IMG/VR virus record: IMGVR_UViG_3300045988_076381
From: a virus
Length of the DNA stretch: 64,000 nt
Strand: one strand, 5' to 3'
A program made the translations under genes and the position numbers. Numbering within the stretch: position 1 is the first letter of the stretch; each line of letters starts with the position of its first letter. Below the pieces are notes generated by a model. That model made no database searches. It was given only the letters and a program-made list of their open reading frames with translations, and was not told the DNA's origin. Of this stretch, positions 2,203 to 59,147 are shown in pieces.

Positions 2203-2221
2203 ATTTTTAATTTAACATATA

Positions 2222-2229
2222 CAAATATA
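2222..2229 (-). promoter_or_regulatory. Bacteroidota-type -7 box TAtaTTTG
   Basis: Reverse complement of caaatata, 20 nt upstream of the start at 2202. Confidence 0.5.
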
Positions 2230-2269
2230 CTAAGATTATAGATCTAATCCTAAGATTAAATGTTAAATT

Positions 2270-2509: not shown

Positions 2510-2544
2510 ATACTATTTGTTTAACTTTATAAATTATGTCACTA

Positions 2545-2552
2545 CAAAGATA
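2545..2552 (-). promoter_or_regulatory. Bacteroidota-type -7 box TAtcTTTG
   Basis: Reverse complement of caaagata, upstream of the start at 2509. Confidence 0.5.
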
Positions 2553-2618
2553 GTATATCTTTAATATTTAAAGAATGTATATATTATATAACAATAACAT
2601 GTGCAATTTAATTTATAC

Positions 2619-3071
2619 CTAATCAATTGCCCCTCCATTTGCTGGCGGAAGTTTTGGAGAGGTATTAGTTACAATAGTATCTAATTTAGTATTTGCCTGA
2701 ATTAAATTAGTATCTATACTAGAGGTATTCGTATGTATAGAAGTAGTTGTATCCTTTATCTGTCCTAAAGTTTCTTTAACAGGATCTAAATCAACATCAA
2801 TATTAGCTAGAGATGCTAATGCTGTATCTAATTTAGCACTAAATGTAGTAGTTAAATTCTCTATTTTAGTTATTAAATCTTGTATTTTAGTATTTGTCGT
2901 ATCTATCTTAGTATTAGTAGTATTTAATTCATTTACTACTGCTGATAATTTCTCTGTTAATAAAGCTATATTCTCTGTATTAAAATCTCCTACTCCTTCC
3001 TTAATCCCTTGTAAAAGTTGGAGGTATAGCTCATTGTAATTGGTTGTTTTATAAAAATCGTTTACGTTCAT
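2619..3071 (-). CDS. hypothetical coiled-coil protein, Thr/Asn-rich
   Basis: 150-aa ORF with heptad-like repeats (TNTKIDTTNTKIQDLITKIENL). Confidence 0.55.
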   Translation of the reverse strand: MNVNDFYKTTNYNELYLQLLQGIKEGVGDFNTENIALLTEKLSAVVNELNTTNTKIDTTNTKIQDLITKIENLTTTFSAKLDTALASLANIDVDLDPVKETLGQIKDTTTSIHTNTSSIDTNLIQANTKLDTIVTNTSPKLPPANGGAID

Positions 3072-3081
3072 TGTGATATAT

Positions 3082-3291
3082 TTAAATTATAAGTTCTATT
3101 ATTTTAGTATTGTCTGTATTTAAAATTTCTTCATTTTTGCATGGTTGAAGTTTATATGTATAACTCTCCTCTTCTGGAGTATATTTAGGTTCGGAGATTA
3201 TTTTATAATATCGTTGTAGTCCTTCTTTTATATAAAATGATTCTGGAAAAGTTAATGTTATTGGTGTAGATTCAAAAGTTGGATTTTGCAT
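3082..3291 (-). CDS. hypothetical protein
   Basis: 69-aa ATG ORF with a TAccTTTG box upstream. Confidence 0.45.
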   Translation of the reverse strand: MQNPTFESTPITLTFPESFYIKEGLQRYYKIISEPKYTPEEESYTYKLQPCKNEEILNTDNTKIIELII

Positions 3292-3315
3292 AAAAGGATT
3301 GATTGTTATGATTTA

Positions 3316-3323
3316 CAAAGGTA
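3316..3323 (-). promoter_or_regulatory. Bacteroidota-type -7 box TAccTTTG
   Basis: Reverse complement of caaaggta, upstream of the start at 3291. Confidence 0.45.
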
Positions 3324-3353
3324 TGTGGTTTTTGTGAGAAATCCTAAAGAAGA

Positions 3354-4108
3354 TTAAGATTTAATTATATTATCATATTTAACTCCATTCCAATAAGGAT
3401 ATAGATAATAATCATCAAGTTTAGCATTTCCGATTCCTACATATTTTTCAAATTCGTCTAATTCATTTATTGGAGTATTCTTGAAATCATCTATTAAACG
3501 AGTATAAAAATCTAGAATAGTAAAATTATTAAATAATACTGTACTTTCTTTATATCTTTCTACTTTTATAAAACCTAAATCCTCTAACAATTTCTCTCTT
3601 TTAATTAAAATATTTTTAGATTTAATCTTTAAAAGTTTTTGTAATAGAGATTTAGTAATAATTAATTTTGGATTTAAGTTATATTGTTTGAAAAATGAAG
3701 TTAGTAATAAACATATAACTCTAATTTCTATATTTCCAACAGGACTACATACAATATATAAATCACTAAAATTATCGCAGAAAGTATATTCATAAACATA
3801 CTCTCCACTATGAGAGATTACATTTTCTTCTGCTTGTTCTTTTGTTTTATCTTCTTCTTTTTTATCTTCTTTGATTGGGATATAATCTTTAAAGATTGTA
3901 ACAACTTTATCTGAATTAAACCATTCTGGCGATCTATTCTATATTCTTCACATAATTTATGTAAATTAGATTCATCTTTACGACTTCCTTCTTTCGAATC
4001 TAATAATATGGCTGTAGGGTTATGTTGTTTATATTGATCAAATCTATGTTCTAAATTAGTAGTATATCCTATTTTATATAAATTTCCTGATTGAATTAAG
4101 TATATCAT
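3354..4108 (-). pseudogene. T5orf172 (GIY-YIG-superfamily) domain protein, disrupted by a 1-nt frameshift near 3927-3934
   Basis: ORF 3818..4108 carries IYLIQSGNLYKIGYTTNLEHRF...LHKLCEEYRID. The expected EWF end of the domain (SPEWFNSDKVV...) continues in another frame with no start codon and runs uninterrupted into ORF 3354..3590. Confidence 0.6.
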
Positions 4109-4566
4109 TCTATTTCGTATTTAATAATAGTGTTAAATTCTCTACAATTTTTTAATGCTTCTTCAATTTGGTTTGTATTTCCTTTAAAAAAATATCTCGG
4201 ATTTAAATAATAGATTCCTTTATATGTAGGATCTTTAAATATAACATTTTTTTTACATAAGGAAGTTAAACAATTTTTTATTGTTCCTTCTGTAATTCCA
4301 CAATTATTTATTATATCCGCTTTTAATTTCATATTAATAACTATCTGATTTCCATATTCCTTATCTACTTCTTTTATATATTGTGAATTTTTCCATAAAT
4401 ATAAAAGTACTTTATATTCACTCATCGTTTTTATTCCAAGTAATCCTGTTATATCCTCTAAATATACTTGAATAAATTCACTAGATTTAGTTTTCTTTAC
4501 TATTTCAAACTCTTGAAGAGTTTCTCCCGCAAAAGTGTTAGTAATTTCTTCTTTAGTTATATTCAT
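4105..4566 (-). CDS. RepL-like / winged-helix DNA-binding protein (putative)
   Basis: 153-aa ORF. The pattern FIQVYLEDI...YKVLLYLW...GITEGTIKNCLTSLCKKNVI...YYLNPRYFFKG resembles the RepL-type layout, from memory only. Confidence 0.4.
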   Translation of the reverse strand: MNITKEEITNTFAGETLQEFEIVKKTKSSEFIQVYLEDITGLLGIKTMSEYKVLLYLWKNSQYIKEVDKEYGNQIVINMKLKADIINNCGITEGTIKNCLTSLCKKNVIFKDPTYKGIYYLNPRYFFKGNTNQIEEALKNCREFNTIIKYEIE

Positions 4567-4586
4567 AATTATTTAATTTTACATTA

Positions 4587-4594
4587 CAAATATA
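4587..4594 (-). promoter_or_regulatory. Bacteroidota-type -7 box TAtaTTTG
   Basis: Reverse complement of caaatata, 21 nt upstream of the start at 4566. Confidence 0.5.
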
Positions 4595-4642
4595 ATAATA
4601 TAAATTTATATTACCAAATATAAAAGACTGAAATTTTTAATC

Positions 4643-7892: not shown

Positions 7893-7965
7893 GGTCCCAT
7901 AGCGTAAAGGTTAACGCAAAACACTCATAATGTTGAGATTCTAGGTTCAAGTCCTAGTGGGACCA
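7893..7965 (+). tRNA. tRNA-Met (anticodon CAT; could also be a lysidine-dependent Ile2 type)
   Basis: Hand-folded cloverleaf: acceptor ggtccca/tgggacc, D stem gcgt/acgc, anticodon loop ctCATaa, T-arm ctagg-ttcaagt-cctag. Confidence 0.85.
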
Positions 7966-8090
7966 CGATATTGATTTTCAGGATTTCTGAGGTTTAGAAT
8001 TTCTGGATTAATGTTTTTTGTAATTTTTTTCATGATCAGTGTTTAACATTAGCAACATTTAATGAGATGTGATATCTCCTTCCTTATTAA

Positions 8091-8113
8091 GGAGAGTTAA
8101 TACTCTCCTTTTT
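8091..8113 (+). terminator. intrinsic terminator-like hairpin
   Basis: ggagag-ttaata-ctctcc followed by ttttt. It overlaps an alternative hairpin ctcctt...aaggag (8076-8094). Confidence 0.45.
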
Positions 8114-8229
8114 AAATTTGTTTATTATGAGAAAGATAGATATAAAATACATAATGACAATAATAGGAATATTTATATTTCTATTATTATTATCTTCATT
8201 AGAATCAATCATTAATTCTATTTAAATAA

Positions 8230-8303
8230 GAGCGAATATCCAAATTGGTTAAGGGAATAGTCTGCAAAACTATATTGTGAGAGTTCGAATCTCTCTTCGC
8301 TCT
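8230..8303 (+). tRNA. tRNA-Cys (GCA)
   Basis: Acceptor gagcgaa/ttcgctc, anticodon arm atagt-ctGCAaa-actat, T-arm gagag-ttcgaat-ctctc. Confidence 0.85.
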
Positions 8304-8420
8304 CATTAAATATTATATTTAAAAGGTTATATTCGGAAATATATAAGAATGATATCTTTTAAATACTTTAAAATTATATTAATTAAAATAAATAAAAATA
8401 ATCTTTTAAATATAATAATT

Positions 8421-8690
8421 ATGAAGATCGTGATTAATAGATCCGGAATTGGATTAAATCTATCTCTACCAGCTATAGAGTATTTAATTAAATATAAAGT
8501 AATTAAGTCTCCATTAGATATGAGAAATATTAATAGGAGTAGCCCAAGATTGGTAAGATGTATCGAAGTATTAGGAGATAACGCATCTTTAGATATGTTA
8601 GAAACGATAACAGTTAGAGATGATTTTAAATATAAAATCTCTGAAATCCAAATAGGTAACATCCATAGAGAAATTATCCTCATGGAGTAA
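8421..8690 (+). CDS. hypothetical protein
   Basis: ATG-initiated part of track ORF 8349..8690. The antisense ORF 8327..8683 is low-complexity Ile/Leu and is rejected. Confidence 0.4.
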   Translation: MKIVINRSGIGLNLSLPAIEYLIKYKVIKSPLDMRNINRSSPRLVRCIEVLGDNASLDMLETITVRDDFKYKISEIQIGNIHREIILME

Positions 8691-8858
8691 GATATTTACA
8701 TATGTAAATCTAATTAGTGTACAATAATTAGATATTCCAAGCTCTACTGGTTACAGAGTATAAATAAACCTAGATTTTTAGATTTCCAAATTGACCTAAA
8801 ATCTAATATCTTAGGATTAGATATAAAATAAGCGTGGAATACTTATTGTTAAATCAAC

Positions 8859-8928
8859 TTCTTAGTAGTTTAACTGGTGAAAATGTCATATACAGTAGGA
8901 AATATTAGTTCGAATCCAATCTAAGAAG
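8859..8928 (+). tRNA. tRNA-like sequence, probable pseudo-tRNA (anticodon arm not foldable)
   Basis: 7-bp acceptor ttcttag/ctaagaa, D-loop with GG, T-arm attag-ttcgaat-ccaat (one A-C mismatch). I could find no 5-bp anticodon stem. Confidence 0.3.
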
Positions 8929-9088
8929 TGATAAAGAAACTCATATAATTCATATCTTAATATTAACCCGAAAAAAGGGCAACAGTAGGGTTGGGGTGGG
9001 TTCAGTGCCCTTGAGATAGTATCAAAATCAGCAATAATGCAGATGAGCTGTAACCACCCCTTTTATTAATAATTTTGTTTATATTCTA

Positions 9089-9160
9089 TGCGAGATAGTG
9101 TAAAGGTAACATCCTAGGCTCATAACCTAGAGGATGGTGGTTCGAATCCATCTCTCGCTA
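9089..9160 (+). tRNA. tRNA with CAT anticodon (Met, fMet or Ile2 type)
   Basis: Anticodon arm ctagg-ctCATaa-cctag, T-arm ggtgg-ttcgaat-ccatc, acceptor gcgaga/tctcgc with a mismatched 1:72 pair and a short D stem. Confidence 0.7.
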
Positions 9161-9396
9161 CTATATAATAGACTTCAGATATTTAACGCGGAATATAGAA
9201 GTTTGTTATATTTTATAATTATGCATGCTAATTATAAATCCCAACTCATCCTATGTCTAAGGGGAGTATAAATTAAAAGCAGATCCATCTTTTTGAGTTT
9301 GTATTGGTAATGAGAATAACTCTATAACTTAGAAATGTTATAAAACTTTCTTGAATTTAAGATATAAGGTTTGGGAACTTACATCATTAAATTAAC

Positions 9397-9471
9397 TCCT
9401 CAGTAGCTCAGTTGGCTAGAGCAGCGGACCGTTAATCCGTAGGATCGTAGGTTCAAGTCCTACCTGAGGAG
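9397..9471 (+). tRNA. tRNA-Asn (GTT)
   Basis: Acceptor tcctcag/ctgagga, D-arm gctc-agttggctaga-gagc, anticodon arm gcgga-ccGTTaa-tccgt, T-arm gtagg-ttcaagt-cctac. Confidence 0.9.
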
Positions 9472-9915
9472 CATAATAAAGAGTGTAGTACTAGTGTAGG
9501 ACTCAACGTAACTTATAGGTTTTGTATTGTACATATAAATTTAGTCCTATTGGGTGTCGTATAACCCAACTTAGCTATCGAGTACGGTTAATGATAGCAT
9601 TTTTATCGAACTTTCATAAAAATAATTATATGAGAAACAAGCATTATTTCCTAATAGATTAATCTGATAAACCGTATATTGGAGTTGATACACTTATAAT
9701 TGTCTAATGCAGCTTCGTATTATAAGAAGCAAGTCAATATAAGAAATCAGTTCAGAATAATGTATTGTATTCGACGTGGGATTTAAAATTGTATTTATGT
9801 GATAGATGTATAGAGAGAAGATTAAGACGGAAAATATCTGGAGAAGATCTAATTCCAAATGATCCTGTTAATAATTTATATATACAAATATGTCTAGATT
9901 TATAATTTATTAATT

Positions 9916-10299
9916 ATGAAAAAGAGAGAACTCCCAAAAGAAGTAAAGAGATGGATTAAATTTTTTATAAAAACTAATGCTTATTATAATTTTGATTGGG
10001 CATTTATGTTAGATGTAGAAAAAGAGAAATTAACTCAATGTATTAAATTTTTTACTGATAACGGATGTCATATTAATAATTCCAGAATAATTTCGAAGAT
10101 GCAATTGGCTGTGAGATTATTAGATATTGCTAGGGATGAGGATTTAGATTTTAAAGGTTATGTAAATACTAAGAATATAAATAGATTTATTTCTATAGAT
10201 AAATATGATATTGATATTCTCCCAACTCTTCGAACTGAAAAAGCGTGGTATTTATATAATAAATTAAGATATTATTATATGAAAGAATGGTGGGATTAA
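9916..10299 (+). CDS. hypothetical protein
   Basis: 127-aa ATG ORF embedded in the tRNA region. Confidence 0.5.
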   Translation: MKKRELPKEVKRWIKFFIKTNAYYNFDWAFMLDVEKEKLTQCIKFFTDNGCHINNSRIISKMQLAVRLLDIARDEDLDFKGYVNTKNINRFISIDKYDIDILPTLRTEKAWYLYNKLRYYYMKEWWD

Positions 10300-10308
10300 A
10301 TATATTAT

Positions 10309-10394
10309 GCTAGAATGGTGAAATTGACAGACACTCAGGACTTAAAATTCTGTGGATAGTAATATCCGTGTGGGTTTGAATCCCACTTCTAGTA
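10309..10394 (+). tRNA. tRNA-Leu (TAA), long variable arm
   Basis: Acceptor gctagaa/ttctagt, anticodon arm cagga-ctTAAaa-ttctg, variable stem ggata/tatcc, T-arm gtggg-tttgaat-cccac. Confidence 0.85.
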
Positions 10395-10686
10395 CTATCT
10401 AGATGTAGCAAAATCAGTGAAGTTAAATACAGAAATACGCTTCGTAAGAGAACCTGTAGTCCTTAAAGGATAGTGGTGACACTGAGCCAATCTATTTATA
10501 TAGAAGGTGAGATTCCAAAAACTACAATATTTATAGGGAATCAATCATATAAGAAATTATATGAAATCTCTGATAATCTATAGTGCCTTATAGAAAAACA
10601 GGGGATGAAGTTAAGGCACAAACTTCATTGGGATATATTCCCGGCGAAAGAGATTTTATATATCTCTGGATCTGATTATTTAATAG

Positions 10687-10749
10687 TACTTTGTGCATCG
10701 GATGCACTCCGAGGGATGTGAGGTTAAGGTTCGACTCCTTACAAAGTGC
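10687..10749 (+). other. tRNA-like element lacking a D-arm
   Basis: Acceptor-like tactttg/caaagtg, canonical T-arm taagg-ttcgact-cctta, and an internal hairpin tcgga-tgcac-tccga. It is too short for a cloverleaf. Confidence 0.3.
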
Positions 10750-10779
10750 CTAAGTAGTAATTATTTAAATATTCATATT

Positions 10780-11679
10780 ATGGAAATTAGAAATGAGAAT
10801 AAAGTATTTTTTGGAGAGAGTGGTATTACTTCTACTTCTGCTACATATTTATGTAACATTGCTAGGGAGTTATTAAAAGATATAGAATCATCTTTAAATA
10901 ATATCTCCTTCATTACTGAGGAAGTAACACTCTTTGGATCTGAGAATAAGATTAGAACTAAAGAAGGATATAATTTATCCGAACTATCTGATCTAGATTC
11001 TAAACTTACTAAAGCTGCACAACTAAAAGCATTTATAGCATGGATGAGTGAAGGAATCAAAGCAAAAGATGTGGAAAGTGAGAAACTTAGAGAATATACT
11101 TTATCTGATTTTATAAAGGATTTCCCTGAATATGTAGTACAGAGGTCTAAAGATTCTACACTAGATCCTAATTATGGACTTGGGAAATTAGATGTTTCAG
11201 AACGGGTTAAATATCTCTTCTCAGAAGCTTTAACTTCTTCAATTGGGAAATATATTCATAATAATGGTGCTTTAAGAAAAGCTTATAGCGAGCTTTTAAA
11301 TATTGCACATAACAAAGTGAATATAACCACAGAAGCAAAAGATTCTATAGTTGTAGTCACTAATAAAATCCCAAGTGTGGATACTAAAAAAGTAGAAAAG
11401 ATTATGCTTAAATATCAAGATTTACGAAGAGAGAATGAGAAGGTTCTGAACTCTTTGAAATCTAAGATAAAAAGTTATGATCATGAATATCAAATATATC
11501 TTACTCTTGAAGATAAAGCAGCTTCAGAGTCGTATAATGAAAAGATGGAAGTAGTACGTTCAAAATATAATGAATATGTATTAAATAAGAGATCGGAAAT
11601 TGAGAAACTTAAAATCATCATCCCAGATGGTTTAAGGAGTATTTATAACGATCTTCATACCATCTCAAAAGAAAAATAA
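10780..11679 (+). CDS. hypothetical protein (coiled-coil-rich)
   Basis: The first ATG of track ORF 10693..11679 is at 10780. The upstream part of that ORF is the tRNA-like element. Confidence 0.55.
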   Translation: MEIRNENKVFFGESGITSTSATYLCNIARELLKDIESSLNNISFITEEVTLFGSENKIRTKEGYNLSELSDLDSKLTKAAQLKAFIAWMSEGIKAKDVESEKLREYTLSDFIKDFPEYVVQRSKDSTLDPNYGLGKLDVSERVKYLFSEALTSSIGKYIHNNGALRKAYSELLNIAHNKVNITTEAKDSIVVVTNKIPSVDTKKVEKIMLKYQDLRRENEKVLNSLKSKIKSYDHEYQIYLTLEDKAASESYNEKMEVVRSKYNEYVLNKRSEIEKLKIIIPDGLRSIYNDLHTISKEK

Positions 11680-11957
11680 ATAAAGTAGGTAATACTTAAA
11701 TCCATTTGGATGGAGGTATTTTTATATGTATAGATTATATATATAATAAAATTTAGCTAAATAATATAGACGATAATATAAACTATTAATGCGAAAGAAT
11801 CCTCAAAAGATGTTTTTATTTAAATAAATATACTTATTTAAATATAAACTATACTCCTCTTTCTGTCTTAACCTTAGTCCTTGAGAGGATTCTTGCCCTT
11901 GACATATTCTTTGGCTGTATTTATATAATCTATACATAACTATTTTTAATAAACATT

Positions 11958-12028
11958 TGTCCTATAGTATAATGGTAATACATCTGGTTTTGGTCCAGAG
12001 AATTGAGGTTCAAATCCTCGTAGGACAA
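11958..12028 (+). tRNA. tRNA-Gln (TTG)
   Basis: Acceptor tgtccta/taggaca, D-arm gtat-aatggta-atac, anticodon arm tctgg-ttTTGgt-ccaga, T-arm tgagg-ttcaaat-cctcg. Confidence 0.85.
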
Positions 12029-12070
12029 CAATTCTATAATGGGAATTTTTAGATTGATTATTTCTTATAG

Positions 12071-19677: not shown

Positions 19678-19902
19678 ATGTGGATAGCGAGAGAAGAAAA
19701 TGATGATTTATATTTATTTAGATATAAACCTTATAAATCTGTACGTCATTGGGTTGCTGATGAACAAGATCCGTCTAAATATCGTTTTAGAATAGATAGA
19801 GAATTATTCCCAGAAATTACTTTTTATAATAGTCCCAAAGAAGTTATTCTTCAGCTTAAGGAGAAAATAACTAAAGTATCAATATTAAACCAGACTATAT
19901 GA
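19678..19902 (+). CDS. hypothetical protein
   Basis: 74-aa ATG ORF. Confidence 0.5.
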   Translation: MWIAREENDDLYLFRYKPYKSVRHWVADEQDPSKYRFRIDRELFPEITFYNSPKEVILQLKEKITKVSILNQTI

Positions 19903-20486
19903 GAAAAATAGGAATATTCTTAGGAAACTTTGATCCTCCTACTATATGTCATCAAAATATAATTAGGAATATTGTAAATTATAATTTCTTAGATGAAATC
20001 TTTATTGTTCCTAAATATAGAAGTGTTAAAGAATCATATTCCACACTTTTTACAGATAGAGTAACTATGTGTAAGAGAGCGTTTAAACCATTTAAAAAGG
20101 TTACTATATCTAATATGGAAAGTTTAATAGCTTCTACAGATATGAAAACCTATAGAGAAGGGGTTCCATCTTGGAAGACTATTGAATTCTTTAAGAATAT
20201 AAAAGATATTGAATTATATATAATAACTACATTCCCTGGATATTCCAAAATTCCTAATTGGGATAAGGGTGAGGAGATATTAAAGGATAATAAATTTATT
20301 GTTCTTTGTGAAACTAAAGATTTAGGGAAATTATCTGAAGATATTATTAGTATACCTTTATATGATCATATCAATATTACATCTAATAAAATTCGGAATT
20401 ATATAAGATTAGATTCTAATCCGTTTCCCTTAGTTCAGAAAGATGTACTTGATTATATTTACAAACATAATCTTTATATAGGATGA
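19899..20486 (+). CDS. nicotinamide/nicotinate mononucleotide adenylyltransferase (NMNAT/NadD-like)
   Basis: N-terminal GNFDPPTICH fits the G-x-F-x-P-x-(T/H)-x-x-H motif, and C-terminal NITSNKIR fits ISSTxxR. Both are hallmarks of this nucleotidyltransferase family. Confidence 0.75.
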   Translation: MRKIGIFLGNFDPPTICHQNIIRNIVNYNFLDEIFIVPKYRSVKESYSTLFTDRVTMCKRAFKPFKKVTISNMESLIASTDMKTYREGVPSWKTIEFFKNIKDIELYIITTFPGYSKIPNWDKGEEILKDNKFIVLCETKDLGKLSEDIISIPLYDHINITSNKIRNYIRLDSNPFPLVQKDVLDYIYKHNLYIG

Positions 20487-20851
20487 GATATTATATTACA
20501 GGACATCGAGATTTATCTAAAGAGGAGTTTAGTAAAATTTATATTCCGGAAATAGATAGAATTATTCAGGAAGATTCTAATGCAGTATTCTTAGTTGGAG
20601 TATGTGAAGGTGTTGATTTATATACTATACAGTATTTAAATAAATACTCTATTCCAGTTCAAGTATACGGTCCGAATTTGGATATTAAAAATGATCTTAT
20701 AAGATTACATTTATATCCAAGTTATGAAAAATCTGCTTTAGAGATGATTAAAAATTCAGATAAAACTATCGGATTTATTAAACCTGGTAGAGAAAATTCT
20801 AGTTTTACTGCTCTAAATGTTTTAAAAAGGTATATAATAAACAAATCTTAA
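20483..20851 (+). CDS. SLOG/YpsA(DUF1273)-like Rossmannoid protein (putative)
   Basis: MRYYITGHRD...FLVGVCEGVDLYTIQYL resembles the ITGxR...G-x-x-G-x-D layout. There is a 4-nt ATGA overlap with the NMNAT gene. Confidence 0.4.
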   Translation: MRYYITGHRDLSKEEFSKIYIPEIDRIIQEDSNAVFLVGVCEGVDLYTIQYLNKYSIPVQVYGPNLDIKNDLIRLHLYPSYEKSALEMIKNSDKTIGFIKPGRENSSFTALNVLKRYIINKS

Positions 20852-20862
20852 ACTTAAATAAT

Positions 20863-21272
20863 ATGAATAGAAAAGAAAGAACTATCTCCGAAAATATGGA
20901 GAAATTAATGATAGACCAAATCTCAAGAGAATTATATAATCATAATGTATATAGAACATATGCGAATTACTATTATGTAAGAGGATTGTTTAAATTACAT
21001 CTTTATTATGAGATGAGATCTAACGAGGAATATAATCATCATCAATGGATTGTTGATAGATTATATAGAGCCGGAGTTGATTTTAATTATCCAGAAGTAC
21101 CAGCTATTAAATCTAATCATGTTATATTAAAGCCAGAAGATAGTTTTCAGAAAGTAGTAGATTTAGAGATTGAAACTACTATGTATATAAATAAAATGAT
21201 AGAAACTGCGAAAGAGGAGAAGGATTGGCAGACGGAGGGATGGTTAAAGAGGACGTTAAATGAAGAGCAGAT
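20863..21272 (+). CDS. ferritin-like protein, exon 1 of 2
   Basis: Four-helix ferritin pattern (QISRELYNHNVYRTYANYY...SNEEYNHHQWIVDRL...DLEIETTMYINKMIETA...). The ORF runs into intron sequence after LNEEQ. Confidence 0.7.
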
Positions 21273-21464
21273 AAACTTTTGTCTGAAAGTATGGTAACAT
21301 ACAGGTGAATAGATCAAAATCGATGAAGTCTAATTTAGATAATATCGAGGTAAGTATGAATTTAAAGGATTCATACCACTGTAACGCGTAGGTGTTGAAA
21401 CTATTAATTATTTATAAATTATATTTTTGCAGAAGAGATAATTGTTTTTATCGTGGAAGAATAT

Positions 21465-22623: not shown

Positions 22624-23268
22624 ATGTTAGTTCTAGATAATATTAATTCAGTCTCGGATGTAATTACAAATTCCTCATCGGAATTATTTGTAATAAACGA
22701 TAAAAATACTACATTAGACCATCTTAAGAATATAATCAATCCTATATTAGATGGTTATTATGAACCATTTGTATTTAATTTAGATACGTTTAGAAAATGG
22801 GTAGAAAGTTCCGAAGAGGATAATTCTACGGATATAGACGCATGTTTTCAGACTATATACGACTGGTTCATTGATTTAGAGTGTCCTAGTGGTTTAACTT
22901 ACTATATTAGGGATACTCTTTATAAGTTACGGTTAGAGGACTATATTAAATTAGAAAATAGTCTACTTAAAGAATTATACGCGGAATTAATTAAAAAGTA
23001 TGATACTAATTATTCCTCATATAAAGAAATTGAAGCTTTTCTTCAAACATATGATGAAGACAAAATAAACAAAATCATAGACTATTTGCTAAATACAAAT
23101 TTCGAATATGACATTCGAAAATTAAATGGAAAGATTATTCTCCTTTCCGAGGAGGAGAATTCCATTTCATGTAGTAGAAAATTTAACCGCTCAGAATTTG
23201 CGGAAGATTCTGATGTATTTCAATGGCTTGAGCATAATTTTAATATTACATATTATCATTTAGGATGA
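22624..23268 (+). CDS. hypothetical protein, SD(I/V)ITNSSSE-motif family member 1
   Basis: N-terminal NSVSDVITNSSSELFVI. Confidence 0.6.
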   Translation: MLVLDNINSVSDVITNSSSELFVINDKNTTLDHLKNIINPILDGYYEPFVFNLDTFRKWVESSEEDNSTDIDACFQTIYDWFIDLECPSGLTYYIRDTLYKLRLEDYIKLENSLLKELYAELIKKYDTNYSSYKEIEAFLQTYDEDKINKIIDYLLNTNFEYDIRKLNGKIILLSEEENSISCSRKFNRSEFAEDSDVFQWLEHNFNITYYHLG

Positions 23269-23690
23269 GATTTAAAATACATTCAATATCAGATATTATA
23301 ACAAACAGTAGTTCAGAAGTATTTCTTGTTTCTAAAGATAGTGAGATAAAGAATATAAAAGGATTGCAAGAGAAACTGAATTTAGGAGACGTATCTGATT
23401 TACTAAAGTTTATACATACTTATAGTTGGGGTATAGATAAAGACTATAATTATGGAGATTTATGTATAACACTTGATCATATACGTGATATAACTAATGC
23501 TTTCAGTAACTACTTCAATGATAGTGACTGGGATGATAATATCTCAAAAATAGGTATATTACGTGATGAGATGTACAAAGTATTTGCTGAGAGTTTTAAA
23601 GATATAGTAGCTATAGTAATAGATAATGGCTATTATTATGAATTTATTGCAAATAATCCAAATTTAAAATATGAAAACTTTCCATATTAA
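23265..23690 (+). CDS. hypothetical protein, SD(I/V)ITNSSSE-motif family member 2
   Basis: N-terminal KIHSISDIITNSSSEVFLV; ATGA overlap with member 1. Confidence 0.6.
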   Translation: MRFKIHSISDIITNSSSEVFLVSKDSEIKNIKGLQEKLNLGDVSDLLKFIHTYSWGIDKDYNYGDLCITLDHIRDITNAFSNYFNDSDWDDNISKIGILRDEMYKVFAESFKDIVAIVIDNGYYYEFIANNPNLKYENFPY

Positions 23691-23979
23691 AATTCATTCT
23701 ATTTCAGATATTATTACTAATAGTAGTTCCGAGACCTTTTGTTTTATTTATAGTGAAGATATATCTAAAGTATTAAAAGTATTATCTCCTTATTTTGGGA
23801 ACTATGATGTTTTTGATGAATGTTGTGCACAAATATATGGTCCTTTTCAAGAAGGTATAGAGGATCCTTATATTGAAATTAGATGTTCCGAAGATTATAG
23901 ACCTTCGTTACTAGAAGAAGGATTAAGATATGTATTAGATAAAAATAATATTGATTATACAATATCAAAAGAAGAATAA
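23671..23979 (+). CDS. hypothetical protein, SD(I/V)ITNSSSE-motif family member 3
   Basis: N-terminal KIHSISDIITNSSSETFCFI; 20-nt overlap with member 2. Confidence 0.6.
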   Translation: MKTFHIKIHSISDIITNSSSETFCFIYSEDISKVLKVLSPYFGNYDVFDECCAQIYGPFQEGIEDPYIEIRCSEDYRPSLLEEGLRYVLDKNNIDYTISKEE

Positions 23980-24271: not shown

Positions 24272-24739
24272 ATGAAAGATTTTAAACACTTTGGAGTTAG
24301 GTTTAAAGGTATAAGTAGTTGTAATTATACCGCAATATGGAGTAATTTAATTACAATACGTCTTGGAGATAAAGAGATTAAAGAACTTCCAGCAGATAAA
24401 GCTGAGTTTTATGACGTTTCATTAGGAGATAAATGTGTTACTGGGAAATGTAATTTCTGCTTAGTACCAGAAACACATATACTTACTAATGAGGGTGATA
24501 AATATATAACAGACATAAAAACAGAAGACTTAGTGTTTTCTTACAATGAGTGTAGTGGAGATATTGAGTTAAAAAAAGTAGACCAAGTATTTGAAAGAGT
24601 ATATGAAGGAGAACTTATTGAAGTGGTTACAGAAATCGGAACTTTAAGACTGACTCCGAATCATAAAATATATACTAGAAATAGAGGATGGATTGCAGCG
24701 TGTAATCTACAAGTGTCAGACGAATTGTTAGAATTTTAA
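24272..24739 (+). CDS. radical-SAM-like protein N-terminal fragment fused to the N-terminal half of a split intein
   Basis: 62 aa of host sequence end in DKCVTGKCNF. Intein block A follows (CLVPETHILT), then block B (TPNHKIY), then a stop. Confidence 0.75.
   Translation: MKDFKHFGVRFKGISSCNYTAIWSNLITIRLGDKEIKELPADKAEFYDVSLGDKCVTGKCNFCLVPETHILTNEGDKYITDIKTEDLVFSYNECSGDIELKKVDQVFERVYEGELIEVVTEIGTLRLTPNHKIYTRNRGWIAACNLQVSDELLEF
24458..24736 (+). mobile_element. split intein, N-terminal half (about 93 aa)
   Basis: Starts at Cys63 (CLVPETHILTNEGD...) and contains TxxH. Several stop codons follow in every frame before the next ORF. Confidence 0.7.
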
Positions 24740-24773
24740 TATCCGAAAAGTTGGAAGTATTAAAATAGATTAT

Positions 24774-24781
24774 TATTTTTG
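24774..24781 (+). promoter_or_regulatory. -7 box TAttTTTG upstream of the free-standing HNH gene
   Basis: Matches TAnnTTTG, 31 nt upstream of ATG 24812. Confidence 0.4.
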
Positions 24782-24811
24782 TATATAAAATAATAACTAA
24801 TTTTAATACTT

Positions 24812-25933
24812 ATGAAAACATGTAAATATTGTGGATGTGATATATCCCACCTAAGAGCTAATGCTACCACTTGTGGATCGAGAGAATGTATAAATGCGTA
24901 TAGAAGAGAACGTAAATCCAAACCTAAGGAGCCAAGAACTTGCGAAATTTGTGGAACGTCTATAGACGATCTTCCTGGACAAAGGAGAATTTGTAAAAAT
25001 CCAGAATGTGAAGCGGAGCAAAAAAGAAGAAAATATGCACAGGCCTTAAAAGAAAAAATATGTAAAAAATGTGGAGATACTTTCCTTGGCACTTCTAAAC
25101 AAACCTGTTGTGAAAACTGTAGAAAACATAAAGATATAACATTTAAAGTTATAGAACAGAAAGTAGTTTGTGAAGATTGTGGAGCCTTACTAAGGACCGA
25201 AAGTAAAAAAGTTAATGGAAAAACTAAGGAGATTATAGCAAAAGGAATGTGTGATGATTGTAAACAAAAACATAGAGAGAAACTTAGTTTACAAATGAAA
25301 GAACATAATCCTATGTTTGATCCTGAGATAGTTAAAAAAACTTCGGAGACAAGACGATATAAGTATCTACAAAAATGTGAAGAAGAAGAAAGGCTTCCTT
25401 ATGTAAGAAAAGGATGTAAAGGTGAAACTAGGGAAGAAATGATTCAAAGAATGAAAGAACACAATCCTATGTTTGATCCTGAAACTAGAGCAAAGGTCAG
25501 CAAAACTCTTAAAGAAAAAATTTTATCTGGAGAAATTATTTATGCTAAAGGTCCAGAACATCATTTGTGGAAAGGTAATAGAAATTTTAATAAGGCAGTA
25601 CGTATAGAATTAAGAAAATGGGTTAAAGAACAAATGGAAAAGGTTCATTATATATGCCAAAAATGTGGGAAAACACGCACCGAATTACATGTACACCATT
25701 TACATCCATTAAGGGATATAATTTTGGATACTTTAAATAAAAATAATTTAACTATCATAGATATAAATAGTATGGAGGGTTCAGAACAATATTTTGATAT
25801 AATTAAACAAATAATTGAATATCATTATCAACATAATGATATCGGAATTGTTGTTTGTCCCCAATGTCATAATGAACTAGATAGTTATTATAAAAGAAAA
25901 ACTCATGAAAATAGTAAGTATAAAGAAAGTTAA
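24812..25933 (+). CDS. free-standing HNH homing endonuclease with zinc ribbons and NUMOD3-like repeats
   Basis: Many CxxC pairs, the duplicated motif MKEHNPMFDPE(I/T)..K.S.T, and C-terminal HVHHLHPL...VVCPQCHNELD (HNH). Confidence 0.75.
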   Translation: MKTCKYCGCDISHLRANATTCGSRECINAYRRERKSKPKEPRTCEICGTSIDDLPGQRRICKNPECEAEQKRRKYAQALKEKICKKCGDTFLGTSKQTCCENCRKHKDITFKVIEQKVVCEDCGALLRTESKKVNGKTKEIIAKGMCDDCKQKHREKLSLQMKEHNPMFDPEIVKKTSETRRYKYLQKCEEEERLPYVRKGCKGETREEMIQRMKEHNPMFDPETRAKVSKTLKEKILSGEIIYAKGPEHHLWKGNRNFNKAVRIELRKWVKEQMEKVHYICQKCGKTRTELHVHHLHPLRDIILDTLNKNNLTIIDINSMEGSEQYFDIIKQIIEYHYQHNDIGIVVCPQCHNELDSYYKRKTHENSKYKES

Positions 25934-26009
25934 TTATAATGGAAAGGTATATAATATTGGAGTGAGAGATAATAATAATTATTTTGCATCTAATATTTTA
26001 GTACATAAC
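25905..26009 (+). mobile_element. split intein, C-terminal half (35 aa)
   Basis: MKIVSIKKVNYNGKVYNIGVRDNNNYFASNILVHN ends in the canonical HN, followed by the +1 Cys. Confidence 0.7.
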
Positions 26010-26786
26010 TGCTATGTATCTTCTAATCCAAATGGGGAGTATTATACTAATGTATGTGAAACATGGAAGAAGTTTATTGCTACATTTGCTCCAGATAAGA
26101 AAGAAAAGAATATCACTATCACAGAAAAACCCTTTCAAATAGCGATTGGATCTGAAGGCTCTGCGGACGAGTCGCCGGAGTTCTGTGATTTCTTGGAAAC
26201 TGTATATAATACTGGAGTAGTTCCTAATTATACTACTAACGGAGTAATTCTATCATATTATGATAAGCCTGGAACAGAATATTATGACTTGGCGAATAAA
26301 ATCCTTAAATATACTCACGATTATGTAGCAGGAGTTGCTGTCTCGTTTGGAAACAAATCTCTCCGATCTTATGCAGAAAATGCTATAAAAGGATTATTAG
26401 AAAAAGGAGATTGTCATATTAATATTCATCATATAATATCTGATAAAGCCTCTGTACAAGACTTTATAGATAGTTGGTATAATTACTCAGACGATATAAA
26501 ATATCATGTCCTATTGCCTCTAATGCCCTCTGGAAGGTCTACTAAAGGATTAGAACCAGGAGTATGGGAAATTCTAGAAAAAGCGATTAAAGATTTAAAT
26601 ATTACAAATGTTGCCTTTGGAGCTCATTTTTATAAATATCTAACAGATTCATCAATTAAAGCTTGGATATATCCTCCCGAAAGTTTAAGTAAGAATATGA
26701 TTCTTAAAAATGGGAAAGTTATTATTACTCCAAGCTCCTTTGATTTAACTCCTATTAAAACATTTGATTTTAATGAGAAAATATAA
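25905..26786 (+). CDS. split-intein C-terminal half fused to the radical-SAM-like protein C-terminal fragment
   Basis: After the 35-aa intein half comes CYVSSNPNG...QIAIGSEG...PNYTTNG. The joined exteins give CVTGKCNFC (C-x4-C-x2-C). Confidence 0.7.
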   Translation: MKIVSIKKVNYNGKVYNIGVRDNNNYFASNILVHNCYVSSNPNGEYYTNVCETWKKFIATFAPDKKEKNITITEKPFQIAIGSEGSADESPEFCDFLETVYNTGVVPNYTTNGVILSYYDKPGTEYYDLANKILKYTHDYVAGVAVSFGNKSLRSYAENAIKGLLEKGDCHINIHHIISDKASVQDFIDSWYNYSDDIKYHVLLPLMPSGRSTKGLEPGVWEILEKAIKDLNITNVAFGAHFYKYLTDSSIKAWIYPPESLSKNMILKNGKVIITPSSFDLTPIKTFDFNEKI

Positions 26787-27093
26787 AAAGAAAAAGAACA
26801 GGTATAGACCAAATAAGGTCTATCCTGTTAAGGATATGCTAATAATAATGGTGAATGAGGAATTAAGACCTTACAATAAAACAGTAGATGATATAAAGGG
26901 TATTGAAGAATGGTATAATTTATATACTTTTAACACTAAATCTCAAGAAGAAGTTTGGAAAGATTATTGTAATAAATTAATTCGTAGACATTTAACTCCT
27001 TGGTATATAGATAAAAAACATGCGAGAATACAGCTCAGTTGGGTAGCACTACAAGTTGGATTATATCCGAAATATTTAAAATATGAAAATTAG
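26773..27093 (+). CDS. hypothetical protein
   Basis: First ATG of track ORF 26764..27093. Confidence 0.45.
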   Translation: MRKYKKKKNRYRPNKVYPVKDMLIIMVNEELRPYNKTVDDIKGIEEWYNLYTFNTKSQEEVWKDYCNKLIRRHLTPWYIDKKHARIQLSWVALQVGLYPKYLKYEN

Positions 27094-27877
27094 AGTAATA
27101 GGAGATCTTCATGGTAGAGATTGGTGGAAGAGAAAAGTTGAAACTGGAGATTCTGATTTAAATATTTTCTTAGGGGATTATGTTGATTCTTATATTGTTT
27201 CTGATGAAGGAATAATAAATAATTTATTAGATATAATTGAATTTAAGAAAGCATATGAGGATAAAGTAATATTATTATTGGGCAATCATGAATTTAATTA
27301 TATTTCTCCTTATATAGGTTATTGTTCTGGATATAGATATAGTATATCTGATAAACTCCAAGATATTTACAGAACCAATCTGCACTTATTTAAATTAAAT
27401 TACAATATTAAGATATATAATCCAGAAACGGAAAAGATAGATAGAACTTACTGGTTTTCTCATGCCGGAATTACAAGTAAATGGTTATCTTTTTATGGAC
27501 AAATATTTAATAATATTGAGAATGAAAAAGATATAGCTTTTAATCATTTATACTATCCTAATCTCTGCGAAAAGATAAATTTATCTATAGATTCTTATAG
27601 ATATTTATCTCAAGTAATGTCTATATCTATGTGTAGAGGTGGTAGTAATTTCTATGGTGGACCATTATGGTCAGATATGTTAGAATCTAAAAGAGATTTT
27701 CTTAAGTATGATCCAGAAATTCCTTTATATGATGCTCCTGTAATACAATACGTAGGACATACCACAGTAAATCCAGAAGAACAAACAGTTTTCAGAGATA
27801 AAGACTCAAGAAGTGAAATTCATTATTGTGATTTTGGAAATAGTGCAGAATATAATGATATTATAATCGAAGTATGA
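27083..27877 (+). CDS. PPP-family (lambda-like) Ser/Thr protein phosphatase / metallophosphoesterase
   Basis: GDLHGR, GDYVDS and GNHE motifs in canonical order. Confidence 0.8.
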   Translation: MKIRVIGDLHGRDWWKRKVETGDSDLNIFLGDYVDSYIVSDEGIINNLLDIIEFKKAYEDKVILLLGNHEFNYISPYIGYCSGYRYSISDKLQDIYRTNLHLFKLNYNIKIYNPETEKIDRTYWFSHAGITSKWLSFYGQIFNNIENEKDIAFNHLYYPNLCEKINLSIDSYRYLSQVMSISMCRGGSNFYGGPLWSDMLESKRDFLKYDPEIPLYDAPVIQYVGHTTVNPEEQTVFRDKDSRSEIHYCDFGNSAEYNDIIIEV

Positions 27878-43801: not shown

Positions 43802-45025
43802 ATGAAGAATAAAATTTTACAACTAAGTAAGAATTGTAATAGTCTAGAAATAGCTAGAATACTATCATTATCTCTAAATGAAGTAGAAAAAGTTTTAATT
43901 GATGAATATTTTCAAAAGAAATGGAAGATATCTAAAAAGGATCTTGAAGAATTAGCTGCAAGAATCTATAATGAATCTCCAACTCTACTATCAGATGAAT
44001 TTAATATATCAGAAGTAACATTAAAAAAATATTTAGCAGATTGCAAATTGTTTAATACTAAGAAAAATGTTATCTATGTTCAAAAATCAGAGGAAGAAAT
44101 TGAAAAATTAGTTCCGGATATAGTTTTAGATTATAATAACCAATTATCTATTGCACAATTAATGGTTAAATATAAGTTATCTAAAGATAAAGTTAAAGAA
44201 ATTTTACATAATAATGAAATTTCAACCGGAAAAGTGACCTGTAATGAACATATATTTGATATAATTGATTCGGAAGAAAAGGCATATTGGCTAGGGTTCC
44301 TATATGCAGATGGAGCAGTGGGGAGTGCTGATAATACTATTGAATTAGCATTAAAACTTTTGGATTGTAAACATCTATATAAATTCAAAACTTTTATAGA
44401 AGCCAAAAGGGATATAAAAATAGAAACTAGTAAAGTTAAAAGATGCAGATTCTCTGTAAGTAGTAAACATTTAAAGTCACAACTTATTAAATTAGGTTGT
44501 ACTCCTCAAAAGTCCTTAACTCTTAAATTTCCAACTAAAGAACAAGTTCCAGATGACTATATCATTCCATTTATAAGAGGGTATTATGATGGAGATGGAA
44601 TATTAACATATAGTTGTTCTACCACTGGTAGAACAGTTTTAGCTACTGGTATGTTGGGAACTGAAAATTTTTTAACTGGAGTTTTAAGTAAGTTTAAGTA
44701 TCCATTACATTCTATTTTGCGTTTAGCTAGTTTGGAAGGATCAAGCGAATGTAAACAAGTAAATTGGTCAAAAACTGATTCTGAGGAGTTTTTAAATACT
44801 ATTTACAAAGATGCTACAATTTTTTTGGATAGAAAATATTTACGATACAAATATTTTAAAGACAATGGATTTGCCGTCCAAAAAAGTAATTTTTTGGATA
44901 ATGACAGAGCAATATCGGAAGAGTCTAAACAATGGATTAATCAGTATTTTAGTATAGATATTGATTCCTTATTGCATGATAATTCCGAGATAAATATAGA
45001 AAGTAACGATTCTATATCATCGTAA
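43802..45025 (+). CDS. intron-encoded LAGLIDADG homing endonuclease (double-motif)
   Basis: YWLGFLYADGAV and FIRGYYDGDGIL. The stop codon lies inside the conserved intron block tcgTAAcgcg. Confidence 0.85.
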   Translation: MKNKILQLSKNCNSLEIARILSLSLNEVEKVLIDEYFQKKWKISKKDLEELAARIYNESPTLLSDEFNISEVTLKKYLADCKLFNTKKNVIYVQKSEEEIEKLVPDIVLDYNNQLSIAQLMVKYKLSKDKVKEILHNNEISTGKVTCNEHIFDIIDSEEKAYWLGFLYADGAVGSADNTIELALKLLDCKHLYKFKTFIEAKRDIKIETSKVKRCRFSVSSKHLKSQLIKLGCTPQKSLTLKFPTKEQVPDDYIIPFIRGYYDGDGILTYSCSTTGRTVLATGMLGTENFLTGVLSKFKYPLHSILRLASLEGSSECKQVNWSKTDSEEFLNTIYKDATIFLDRKYLRYKYFKDNGFAVQKSNFLDNDRAISEESKQWINQYFSIDIDSLLHDNSEINIESNDSISS

Positions 45026-59146: not shown

Positions 59147-59147
59147 T

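Follow-up and report, generated by a model that had tools for sequence, protein, structure and literature searches.

Organization of the locus

The window analysed here is a 64,000-nucleotide stretch of the IMG/VR virus record IMGVR_UViG_3300045988_076381. It contains the gene of a 320-aa protein with a predicted radical-SAM fold, which is interrupted between Phe62 and Cys63 (Table 1). The upstream half runs from the host residues directly into an intein-like stretch (CLVPETHILT...LTPNHKIY...DELLEF) and stops. The downstream half opens with intein-like residues ending in NILVHN, after which the host sequence resumes as CYVSSNPNG. An ORF for a putative HNH endonuclease lies between the two halves. 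This ORF shares its frame with the N-half, but four in-frame stops intervene (LEF-stop-YPKSWKY-stop-NRLLFLYIK-stop-stop-LILILM). The C-half is read in another frame and overlaps this ORF by 29 nt, with the IntC start codon lying within the final 29 nt of the ORF. As originally predicted, the ORF is independent of both halves and a single sequencing error could not fuse the three.

Table 1. Coordinates of the features of the interrupted gene and of the inserted element in the window.
Feature	Position	Strand	Description
N-half ORF	24272..24739	+	155 aa: 62 host residues, then 93 intein residues and stop
N-extein coding part	24272..24457	+	62 aa, ending C55-VTGK-C60-NF; first two Cys of the triad
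IntN	24458..24739	+	93 aa and TAA stop; Cys1, block B TPNH; net charge -9
Spacer	24740..24811	+	72 nt; three more in-frame stops; hairpin
Hairpin arms	24755-24779 / 24787-24811		25 nt each, 7-nt loop
TAttTTTG box	24774..24781		inside the hairpin
HNH ORF	24812..25933	+	373 aa, free-standing putative endonuclease
HNH core	about 25655..25870		C282-x2-C285...H295-H296...C349-x2-C352-H353, near the C-terminus
C-half ORF	25905..26786	+	293 aa: 35 residues to NILVHN, then host residues
IntC	25905..26009	+	35 aa, MKIVSIKK...NNNYFASNILVHN; net charge +4
C-extein coding part	26010..26786	+	258 aa and stop; first residue Cys63
Whole inserted element	24458..26009	+	1552 bp; bounds from comparison with an uninterrupted allele (L007)

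The bounds of the element are those given by an empty allele on a syntenic phage contig (L007). Window positions 24265-24461 align with 5994-6190 of that contig, and 26010-29425 with 6187-9604. Identity downstream of the insertion is 99.3%, and the C-extein is 99.7% identical in nucleotide sequence to the empty allele. Once the exteins are joined, the junction reads CVTGKCNF-CYVSS, that is, C55-x4-C60-x2-C63. Going by the sequence, Cys63 would have two roles, as the +1 splicing nucleophile and as the third cysteine of the cluster triad. The ORF coordinates, the division into host and intein residues, the junction and the cysteine spacing of the original prediction all match the sequence. The locus is a ‘fractured gene’, in which a split intein is combined with a free-standing putative HNH gene, and adds a new example to a known arrangement.

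The interrupted gene

The healed 320-aa extein is colinear with its uninterrupted relatives, with 97% identity to P0001 at 100% coverage; its N-extein corresponds to residues 1-62 of uninterrupted 320-aa homologues. C55, C60 and C63 are conserved without exception across 45 homologues. The radical-SAM family profile PF04055 does not match the healed protein of the window at E<=1. It does match 30 of the 45 homologues at E<=0.01 (best 1.6e-7), weakly but recurrently, and many homologues of the healed extein carry a precomputed PF04055 assignment. No NCBIfam model matches the extein. PDB sequence searches with the extein, as a single sequence or as a profile, returned only designer-PPR repeats, which are spurious, and GDGT-MAS, matched below threshold at the Cys motif. 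A fold search was needed in their place. The AF2 model of the healed protein (pLDDT 91.9, pTM 0.91) was compared with the PDB using Foldseek, and the top 41 matches are all radical-SAM enzymes with TM-scores of 0.4-0.58, among them SuiB (2e-8), DesII, NifB, GDGT-MAS, EpeE, BlsE, PqqE and MoaA. On the strength of this model, the host protein has a radical-SAM fold, as had been proposed from the sequence.

The Cx4Cx2C spacing, which had been put forward as a new feature, is present in the window but has a narrower meaning. The canonical Cx3Cx2C occurs in P0043, P0062, L008, L014 and L016, which include other fractured alleles, and the longer spacing is particular to the window's sub-clade.

We rejected homology of the ‘ITNSSSE’ ORFs upstream to the N-domain found in a second radical-SAM family (nothing by BLASTP, hhalign probability 1.65%). 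The two have a short motif in common and nothing more.

The two intein halves

Profile searches of both halves support the proposed intein. When IntN and IntC are joined artificially, they exceed the Pfam thresholds for Intein_splicing (49.9 vs 35.8 bits) and PT-HINT (44.4 vs 27.7 bits), as well as the NCBIfam thresholds for intein_Nterm TIGR01445 (36.5 vs 24.5 bits) and intein_Cterm TIGR01443 (22.6 vs 15.6 bits). IntN alone passes PT-HINT with 32.3 bits against the same threshold of 27.7. On Intein_splicing the single halves are weaker (26.0 and 22.5 bits, threshold 35.8), and IntC aligns to positions 122-155 of that profile. Judged by these scores, the match is beyond chance and both halves are parts of a class-1 intein with a HINT fold. 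The nearest solved relative is the NrdJ-1 split intein (E 2e-8), which belongs to one of the original fractured genes (PMC2677866).

Conservation follows the residues expected to carry out splicing. The catalytic residues C1, T66 and H69 (TxxH), H127, N128 and C129 (+1) are invariant across six diverged copies, and so are N116, N118, Y119, F120, H127 and N128 of IntC. In addition, the halves are complementary in charge in five lineages, with IntN at -5 to -9 and IntC at +3 to +7.

The putative HNH gene

The 373-aa protein matches PHROG 1271, ‘HNH endonuclease’, with E 3.5e-16. Pfam HNH reaches 17.1 bits on it, under the threshold of 21.4, and matches 10 of 23 family members at E<=0.01. C282, C285, H295, H296, C349, C352 and H353 are invariant or nearly so in the family, giving a CxxC..HH..CxxCH pattern. 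We base the HNH identification on the PHROG match and this conserved pattern. The other part of the earlier label, NUMOD3-like, was not upheld: the NUMOD3 profile gave no match to the window's protein at E<=1 and none among the 23 family members at E<=0.01. Eight CxxC pairs are arrayed in the N-terminal part as putative Zn-ribbon modules for DNA binding, and the ORF holds two MKEHNPMFDPE repeats. A model of the protein (pLDDT 85, pTM 0.37) found no Foldseek match at E<=0.001 when used whole, and a PDB profile search with the family gave weak zinc-finger noise only.

The window also contains further nuclease ORFs, an HNH_3 ORF and one that is LAGLIDADG-like and has a PHROG 4645 paralogue.

Spacer hairpin and expression signals

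The spacer between IntN and the HNH ORF can form an A/U-rich hairpin that ends at the HNH start codon. Its arms are 88% complementary, with an MFE of -18.6 kcal/mol and a z of -4.07. Similar hairpins precede the HNH ORF in L011, L014 and L016, and z ranges from -3.4 to -6.4 over the four lineages. The 75 nt at 24737..24811 (the spacer plus the stop codon of the N-half) have no mismatch to L017-L020, whereas the flanking coding DNA differs by 3-9% from the same contigs.

The HNH ORF had been credited with its own TAttTTTG box. The box is present, but its role as a promoter element is unsupported, since TANNTTTG occurs 79 times in the window against 91 expected and so shows no enrichment. A search for promoters of the three ORFs gave none that could be assigned, a sigma-70/terminator scan yielded no signal above shuffles, and neither a Shine-Dalgarno (SD) sequence nor a promoter could be assigned to the C-half. 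Rfam found no intron and no other RNA family in the focal region. An SD core precedes 4 of the 61 ORF starts in the window, below the 12% background. These few SD cores and the GC content of 27.5% are compatible with the proposed Bacteroidota host and are not evidence for it.

Alleles, distribution and selection

The layout is widespread across contigs. Six independently assembled contigs carry the element with 100% identity, and the exact N-half occurs on 55 (its 90% cluster holds 77 sequences). Both the site and the three-ORF layout recur in L011-14 and L016, where the HNH protein is 40-50% identical to that of the window, and the three-ORF set is found in other phage lineages, diverged to 40-60% identity. 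The identical assemblies and these diverged recurrences bear out the earlier claim that the arrangement is no sequencing artefact. Occupied copies have exteins that are as little as 38-62% identical, with the catalytic residues still invariant, and the ORFs are intact in several diverged lineages. Depending on the lineage, the HNH ORF is offset from IntC by +1 or -1 in frame, or is in frame with it across a gap of 42 nt. Of 80 IMG/VR loci, 3 are occupied, and 79 of 82 loci in the population are uninterrupted. Presence or absence of the element is thereby polymorphic at precisely this position in near-identical phages. All HNH family members with examined context sit at one site of the radical-SAM gene family.

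The dN/dS values are 0.03 for ExtN (in comparison with L017), 0.03 for IntN, 0.10 for HNH, 0.11 for IntC and 0.08 for ExtC, with 38 synonymous and 18 non-synonymous changes in the HNH ORF. At the level of codon substitutions, these values show purifying selection on all five coding segments.

In the empty alleles, differences are bunched at -6..-1 and +3..+11 around the insertion site, and the remaining ExtC is about 99% identical. This distribution fits endonuclease pressure or co-conversion; it could also reflect extein-intein co-adaptation instead of endonuclease resistance.

One site of the gene family is found in three occupied forms: a mini-intein (P0195), the three-ORF fractured form of the window and a two-ORF IntN-HNH fusion (L008, L010). 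IntN and HNH share one ORF in the relatives P0142, P0150 and P0178. Neither the 65 HNH-family clusters nor the best 150 IntN relatives include a fully contiguous IntN-HNH-IntC.

In GenBank phages, the radical-SAM protein has no homologue, and at the DNA level there is a match of only 64 bp. The DNA polymerase of the phage is about 34% identical to those of diverse GenBank phages, so no reference phage or host emerges. Two MAG contigs with matches, labelled Mycoplasmatota and Methanobacteriaceae, are probably mis-binned phage DNA; for this reason, we infer no host from them.

Proposed mechanism and alternatives

We read the locus, with a probability of about 85%, as the fractured gene of a radical-SAM-fold enzyme in an uncultured ~165-kb gut phage, carrying a selfish class-1 split intein and an HNH homing-endonuclease gene. 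Weighing against this reading are the missing PF04055 match of the window's own extein and its non-canonical cysteine spacing, the Pfam HNH score under threshold together with the empty Foldseek search of the whole nuclease model, and the failure to assign a promoter to any of the three ORFs. The two halves, ExtN-IntN and IntC-ExtC, would be translated apart, the latter from a start codon provided by the 3' end of the element. Acidic IntN and basic IntC would then associate and trans-splice: after an acyl shift at Cys1, Cys63 would attack, the terminal Asn would cyclise and an S-to-N shift would follow. The predicted product is the 320-aa enzyme with the junction peptide ...CNF-CYVSSNPNGEYYTNVCETWK and the C55/C60/C63 triad restored for [4Fe-4S]/SAM binding. 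Meanwhile, the HNH protein would cut intein-less alleles of co-infecting relatives near the conserved Cys-motif codons, and repair would copy the element into them (homing). Indirect evidence for such cleavage and mobility comes from the exact presence/absence polymorphism and from the site variants bunched at the junction. The hairpin at the HNH start may restrain translation of the nuclease.

A further idea, which we consider doubtful, is that splicing at the Fe-S triad acts as a checkpoint. The N-half precursor keeps a full C-x4-C-x2-C because the intein's Cys1 replaces Cys63, and it also has a Cys-3/Cys1 pair, as in the Pyrococcus abyssi MoaA intein. Given this cysteine pattern and this pair, trans-splicing, and with it maturation of an oxygen-labile enzyme, could be redox- or iron-sulfur-gated in the infected cell.

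The homing step is where an alternative fares best. The nuclease may no longer home, or not only home, and be kept for cutting the genomes of competing phages (marker exclusion) or for a phage function. Such a role would suit the strong purifying selection on the HNH ORF in an element that is a minority allele, and the window does hold several more nuclease ORFs. We still regard it as unlikely: the HNH family members with examined context all occur at a single site of one gene family, a pattern characteristic of site-specific homing. The nuclease could, however, serve both exclusion and homing.

It is quite improbable that the intein halves only dimerise and hold together a two-chain enzyme without splicing, comparable to the intein-less NrdA of phage Aeh1, which is split by an endonuclease gene. 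Functional fragmented enzymes with element-derived interaction domains have precedent (PMC3045599), and the charge complementarity of IntN and IntC would equally serve plain association. On the other hand, every splicing residue is conserved under purifying selection. Moreover, the break falls inside a nine-residue Cys triad, and an unspliced complex would put about 128 intein residues between C60 and C63.

Decay of the locus is very improbable. Under this explanation, the insertion killed the radical-SAM gene, and the intein halves and the nuclease are relics being lost. The phage can do without the element, since most alleles are uninterrupted, and the C-half has no assignable promoter or SD; both observations would suit a pseudogene. 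Against it stand the low dN/dS in every segment, both intein halves and the nuclease included, the invariant catalytic residues despite such diverged exteins, and the ORFs kept intact in several lineages.

Scarcely credible, finally, is the view that assembly or sequencing errors have broken up a contiguous intein containing a nested HNH domain, or that programmed frameshifting or readthrough yields one continuous product: although the HNH ORF is in frame with the N-half and single-ORF IntN-HNH relatives exist, four stops separate the two, six independent assemblies are identical, the contiguous form is absent from the clusters and relatives searched, and the HNH-IntC frame relation varies among lineages, which makes a conserved recoding signal implausible.

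Significance

The fractured gene with its split intein and putative homing nuclease extends this arrangement past DNA-metabolism enzymes, to an HNH-type nuclease (predicted but unseen in 2009) and to abundant human-gut phages. The additional features are the HNH-type nuclease, a host protein outside DNA metabolism, the related mini-intein and IntN-HNH fusion forms, and the site-altered empty alleles. The split intein, a natural one with Cys1 and Cys+1 and a relative of NrdJ-1, is also a possible new tool for protein ligation, and the break within the Fe-S ligand triad makes the locus a clean test case for conditional splicing. In addition, one gene family offers a natural series of empty, site-variant empty, mini-intein, fractured and IntN-HNH fusion alleles, which is relevant to the homing cycle and to the acquisition of nucleases by inteins. 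A more doubtful reading is that the mini-intein, the fractured form and the IntN-HNH fusion could be living intermediates in the gain of nuclease domains by inteins.

Comparison with known systems

Similar split inteins are known from cyanobacterial DnaE (Ssp/Npu). These are also naturally split class-1 inteins with Cys1 and Cys+1, an IntN of about 100 aa, an IntC of about 35 aa and acidic/basic complementarity. Unlike in the window, the DnaE halves lie at distant loci of a cellular host, without a nuclease.

MoaA, a radical-SAM enzyme, has the Cx3Cx2C motif. The intein in MoaA of P. abyssi is reported to have a native Cys-3 that can bond to Cys1, forming a redox trap (work of Callahan et al. 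2011, summarised in PMC3922620 and PMC10663303). This position together with the motif would place the insertion just before the third Cys, as in the window, where C60 is the Cys at -3. The MoaA intein is contiguous, archaeal and without a free-standing nuclease. The radical-SAM host, put forward as new in the original prediction, has a precedent in this contiguous intein.

In the Aeh1 phage, mobE splits nrdA (PMC2677866 cites this case, and PMC3045599 deals with the assembly). There, a free-standing phage homing-endonuclease gene also divides a gene into two ORFs, overlaps the downstream part and has its translation restrained by a hairpin, as we propose for the window. The Aeh1 gene has no intein, and its halves assemble non-covalently.

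Other phage inteins carry an in-frame HNH domain, and actinophage inteins have out-of-frame nucleases; invasion by a free-standing gene has been proposed as the origin of the nuclease (bioRxiv 10.1101/2025.01.02.630785). An HNH nuclease is associated with a phage intein in both cases, but the intein is contiguous there, whereas here the nuclease is a separate gene in the window, or, in L008 and L010, is fused to IntN alone.

The closest parallel is with the fractured genes of Dassa et al. 2009, such as the NrdJ-1, gp41-1 and IMPDH-1 loci (PMC2677866). [quoted passage not shown] The inteins are related in sequence as well, through NrdJ-1. The 2009 loci came from marine and lake metagenomes, in contrast to the gut here, and had GIY-YIG or Vsr-like endonucleases, an HNH in the same role being only predicted by the authors (PMC2677866). 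Their eight host proteins were enzymes of DNA synthesis or repair; in the window, the interrupted gene encodes a radical-SAM-fold enzyme, and the break falls within its Fe-S motif.

Locus layout and insertion

Re-reading of the window bears out the three-ORF layout of the original prediction, with its coordinates and residue boundaries. The N-half encodes a host part (ExtN) followed by the first intein half (IntN), and the C-half encodes the second intein half (IntC) followed by the rest of the host protein (ExtC). As proposed, the middle ORF is cut off from the N-half by several (four) in-frame stops and lies in another frame than the C-half, but it shares the frame of the N-half. The C-half start codon falls 29 nt before the stop of the middle ORF.

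Coordinates of features in the window and in related loci
Feature	Position	Strand	Details
N-half ORF	24272..24739	+	62 host residues ending DKCVTGKCNF, then 93 residues from CLVPETHILT, including LTPNHKIY
Middle ORF, 373 aa	24812..25933	+	between N-half and C-half
C-half ORF	25905..26786	+	35 residues ending NILVHN, then CYVSSNPNG...
Two-ORF form	L008 5001..7563; L010 5001..6964		fused ORF of 563-573 aa, C-half separate
Tandem small ORFs	22624..23979		also in L007, L011, L016, L021, L041-45, L049-50, L061, L079, L100-101
Cytidylyltransferase-like and ferritin-like genes	19899..21297		upstream of radical-SAM cluster
Calcineurin-like phosphoesterase	27083..27877		just downstream of radical-SAM cluster
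Ribonucleotide reductase pieces	59136..59759; 60571..61356; 61605..62705		profile positions 30-227; 237-517; 519-663
HNH_3 ORF	59844..60416		first gap of ribonucleotide reductase gene
Group I intron	61329..61554		second gap of ribonucleotide reductase gene; 101.7 bits
Paralogous endonuclease ORFs	43802..45025; 51378..52457		PHROG 4645; latter also Pfam LAGLIDADG_3
tRNA gene cluster	7893..12029		ARAGORN 6 (Met x2, Cys, Asn, Leu, Gln); Rfam 7

The alignments show a real insertion. A syntenic contig with an uninterrupted gene (L007) matches the window on both sides (24265-24461 to 5994-6190; 26010-29425 to 6187-9604, the latter at 99.3% identity), and the alignment ends thus delimit an insertion of 1552 bp at 24458..26009. 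Three of the 80 best IMG/VR loci are occupied. The exact N-half occurs on 55 contigs (mostly ~160-170 kb), where IMG labels it 'intein/homing endonuclease', and the exact C-half protein on nine. A single ORF split by sequencing error is countered by the six retrieved contigs of those nine, which come each from another sample, are 100% identical across 24272..26786 and share the 155/373/293 aa layout.

All close IMG/VR empty (intein-less) alleles carry a tight cluster of differences from the window's healed junction (ExtN and ExtC joined in silico): five of the six upstream bases are changed (AATTTC to CCGTGG), as are positions +3 and +9 to +11, turning NF/CYVS into PW/CYVD at the protein level. 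In L023-L039 and L043 (locus position ~4186), about nine substitutions lie within ~20 nt of the insertion site, and in most of these empty alleles the entire C-extein is still 98-99% identical to that of the window. L007 retains NF/CYVS and diverges further upstream. The cluster fits endonuclease-driven site variation or co-conversion; co-adaptation of extein and intein is an alternative explanation.

The broken ends as intein halves

Profile searches identify the two broken ends as intein halves, as the original prediction held. The N-half matches PT-HINT (32.3 bits, threshold 27.7), residues 1-35 of the C-half match the final 34 positions of Intein_splicing, and the joined halves exceed the thresholds of Intein_splicing (49.9 versus 35.8 bits), TIGR01445 and TIGR01443. 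The best solved relative (E 2e-8) is the split intein NrdJ-1, one of those that interrupt the fractured genes of Dassa et al. (PMC2677866). Six diverged copies, when aligned, agree without exception at Cys1, at the Thr and His of block B, at the penultimate His and terminal Asn, and at the +1 Cys. The net charges of the halves are opposite, negative for IntN (-9) and positive for IntC (+4), and four other lineages have the same polarity, which is usual in natural split inteins. The halves are predicted to splice in trans. Separately, helicase-like N-halves (P0288, P0300) end in the same IntN family.

The host protein

Neither Pfam nor NCBIfam has a match for the healed extein itself, but a sequence search found 824 relatives, led by uninterrupted 320-aa proteins (93-97% identity, 100% length coverage), with which the junction CNF/CYVSS is exactly colinear. 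C55, C60 and C63 are invariant among the 45 homologues aligned; 30 of these 45 match PF04055 at E<=0.01. An AlphaFold model built from the same sequences reached a pLDDT of 91.9, and its top 41 Foldseek matches in the PDB are all radical-SAM enzymes (among them SuiB, DesII, NifB, GDGT-MAS, EpeE, BlsE, PqqE and MoaA). From the PF04055 matches of its relatives, the model and the fold matches we conclude that the host is probably a divergent radical-SAM-fold enzyme, in agreement with the predicted host. The predicted Cx4Cx2C spacing does appear on joining the exteins, but it is confined to the window's sub-clade, other members (fractured ones included) having Cx3Cx2C. In one homologue (P0108), the first two Cys of the triad are separated by a ~50-aa insertion, which is too short for an intein.

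The putative nuclease ORF and its hairpin

Of the 'HNH/NUMOD3-like' label, the first part is probable and the second has no profile support. The 373-aa ORF matches PHROG 1271 (HNH endonuclease, E 3.5e-16) and has no match to the NUMOD3 profile; against Pfam HNH it falls below threshold, but 10 of 23 family members match. Conserved residues in the family are C282/C285, H295/H296 and C349/C352/H353, together with eight CxxC pairs in the first half of the protein. A whole-chain fold search with the HNH model was uninformative. All members whose context was looked up lie at the same site of the radical-SAM gene. The protein is predicted to cleave DNA.

The 72-nt spacer folds into a hairpin, its arms 25 nt long, which reaches to the HNH AUG (MFE -18.6 kcal/mol, z-score -4.07). 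Spacer and N-half stop codon together (24737..24811, 75 nt) show zero mismatches against the loci L017-L020, and adjacent coding DNA differs by 3-9%. In L011, L014 and L016, the HNH start is likewise covered by comparable hairpins, formed by unrelated sequences. The TAttTTTG box ascribed to the nuclease ORF is present and falls inside the hairpin, but across the window the motif occurs no more often than expected (79 found, 91 expected); sigma-70-like sites are at shuffle level.

Selection and age

Measured against L017 (a 95%-identical copy), dN/dS is 0.03 for ExtN, 0.03 for IntN, 0.10 for HNH (38 synonymous, 18 non-synonymous changes), 0.11 for IntC and 0.08 for ExtC. Diverged lineages keep site and layout at identities of 38-62% (exteins), 32-46% (IntN), 60-75% (IntC) and 35-50% (HNH). 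The low dN/dS and the shared site and layout indicate an element that is old and functional, neither a recent accident nor a relic.

Related forms and neighbourhood

Two loci (L008, L010) carry a two-ORF form: one continuous reading frame runs through ExtN, IntN and HNH without the hairpin spacer, and an IntC-ExtC ORF follows. At the same site, P0195 has a mini-intein that is contiguous and lacks a nuclease. A fully contiguous IntN-HNH-IntC was not found among 65 HNH-family clusters or the best 150 IntN relatives. Related inteins, some split and some contiguous mini-inteins, lie at the equivalent Cys in a second family of phage radical-SAM proteins, which has an ATNSSS..DHQS..GGNDN domain at its N terminus (mini-intein and second-family sequences: P0195; P0199, P0205, P0207 and others; P0215, P0237, P0266). 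In the Dassa model, the two-ORF and mini-intein forms correspond to steps I and II and, in part, IIIa.

L040, a 97%-identical relative without intein, has its radical-SAM gene broken by another insert, which follows QIAIG at residue 109 (2176..4636; also L010 6964..7388 and L022). The ~1.5 kb insert holds a 413-aa GIY-YIG ORF and no Rfam intron match, and the downstream part of the gene restarts without a start codon. On these comparisons, insertions have a second hot spot in this gene at QIAIG.

In nearly every related locus, 2-4 tandem small ORFs (94-243 aa) immediately precede the radical-SAM gene. They all start with S(I/V)SD(V/I)ITNSSSE(V/L)F and lack Pfam or PHROG matches; this conserved cluster may encode partners or substrates of the enzyme. 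The flanking cytidylyltransferase-like, ferritin-like and phosphoesterase layout is kept in related contigs. Elsewhere in the window, the ribonucleotide reductase gene lies in three pieces (59136..62705), and the two PHROG 4645 ORFs have helicase, Sak4-like and exonuclease genes as neighbours; homing nucleases seem to be plentiful in the replication module.

Comparison with known fractured genes

The locus shows every sequence-level feature of the fractured genes described by Dassa et al., and the original prediction is correct, with splicing and cleavage as inferred steps. A full-text literature search brought up no report of split inteins in phage radical-SAM proteins, but an intein in a radical-SAM motif is not new, since one with Cys-3 and Cys1 is known from P. 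abyssi MoaA (PMC3922620, PMC10663303). Of the 16 fractured loci of Dassa et al., 15 have hairpins, and the overlaps with the downstream half span 6-69 bp (PMC2677866); the window is alike in its 29-nt overlap and its hairpin at the endonuclease start. It differs in nuclease type and host class, as the endonucleases they saw were only GIY-YIG and Vsr-like (HNH was predicted) and the genes they found broken encoded enzymes of DNA synthesis or repair (PMC2677866).
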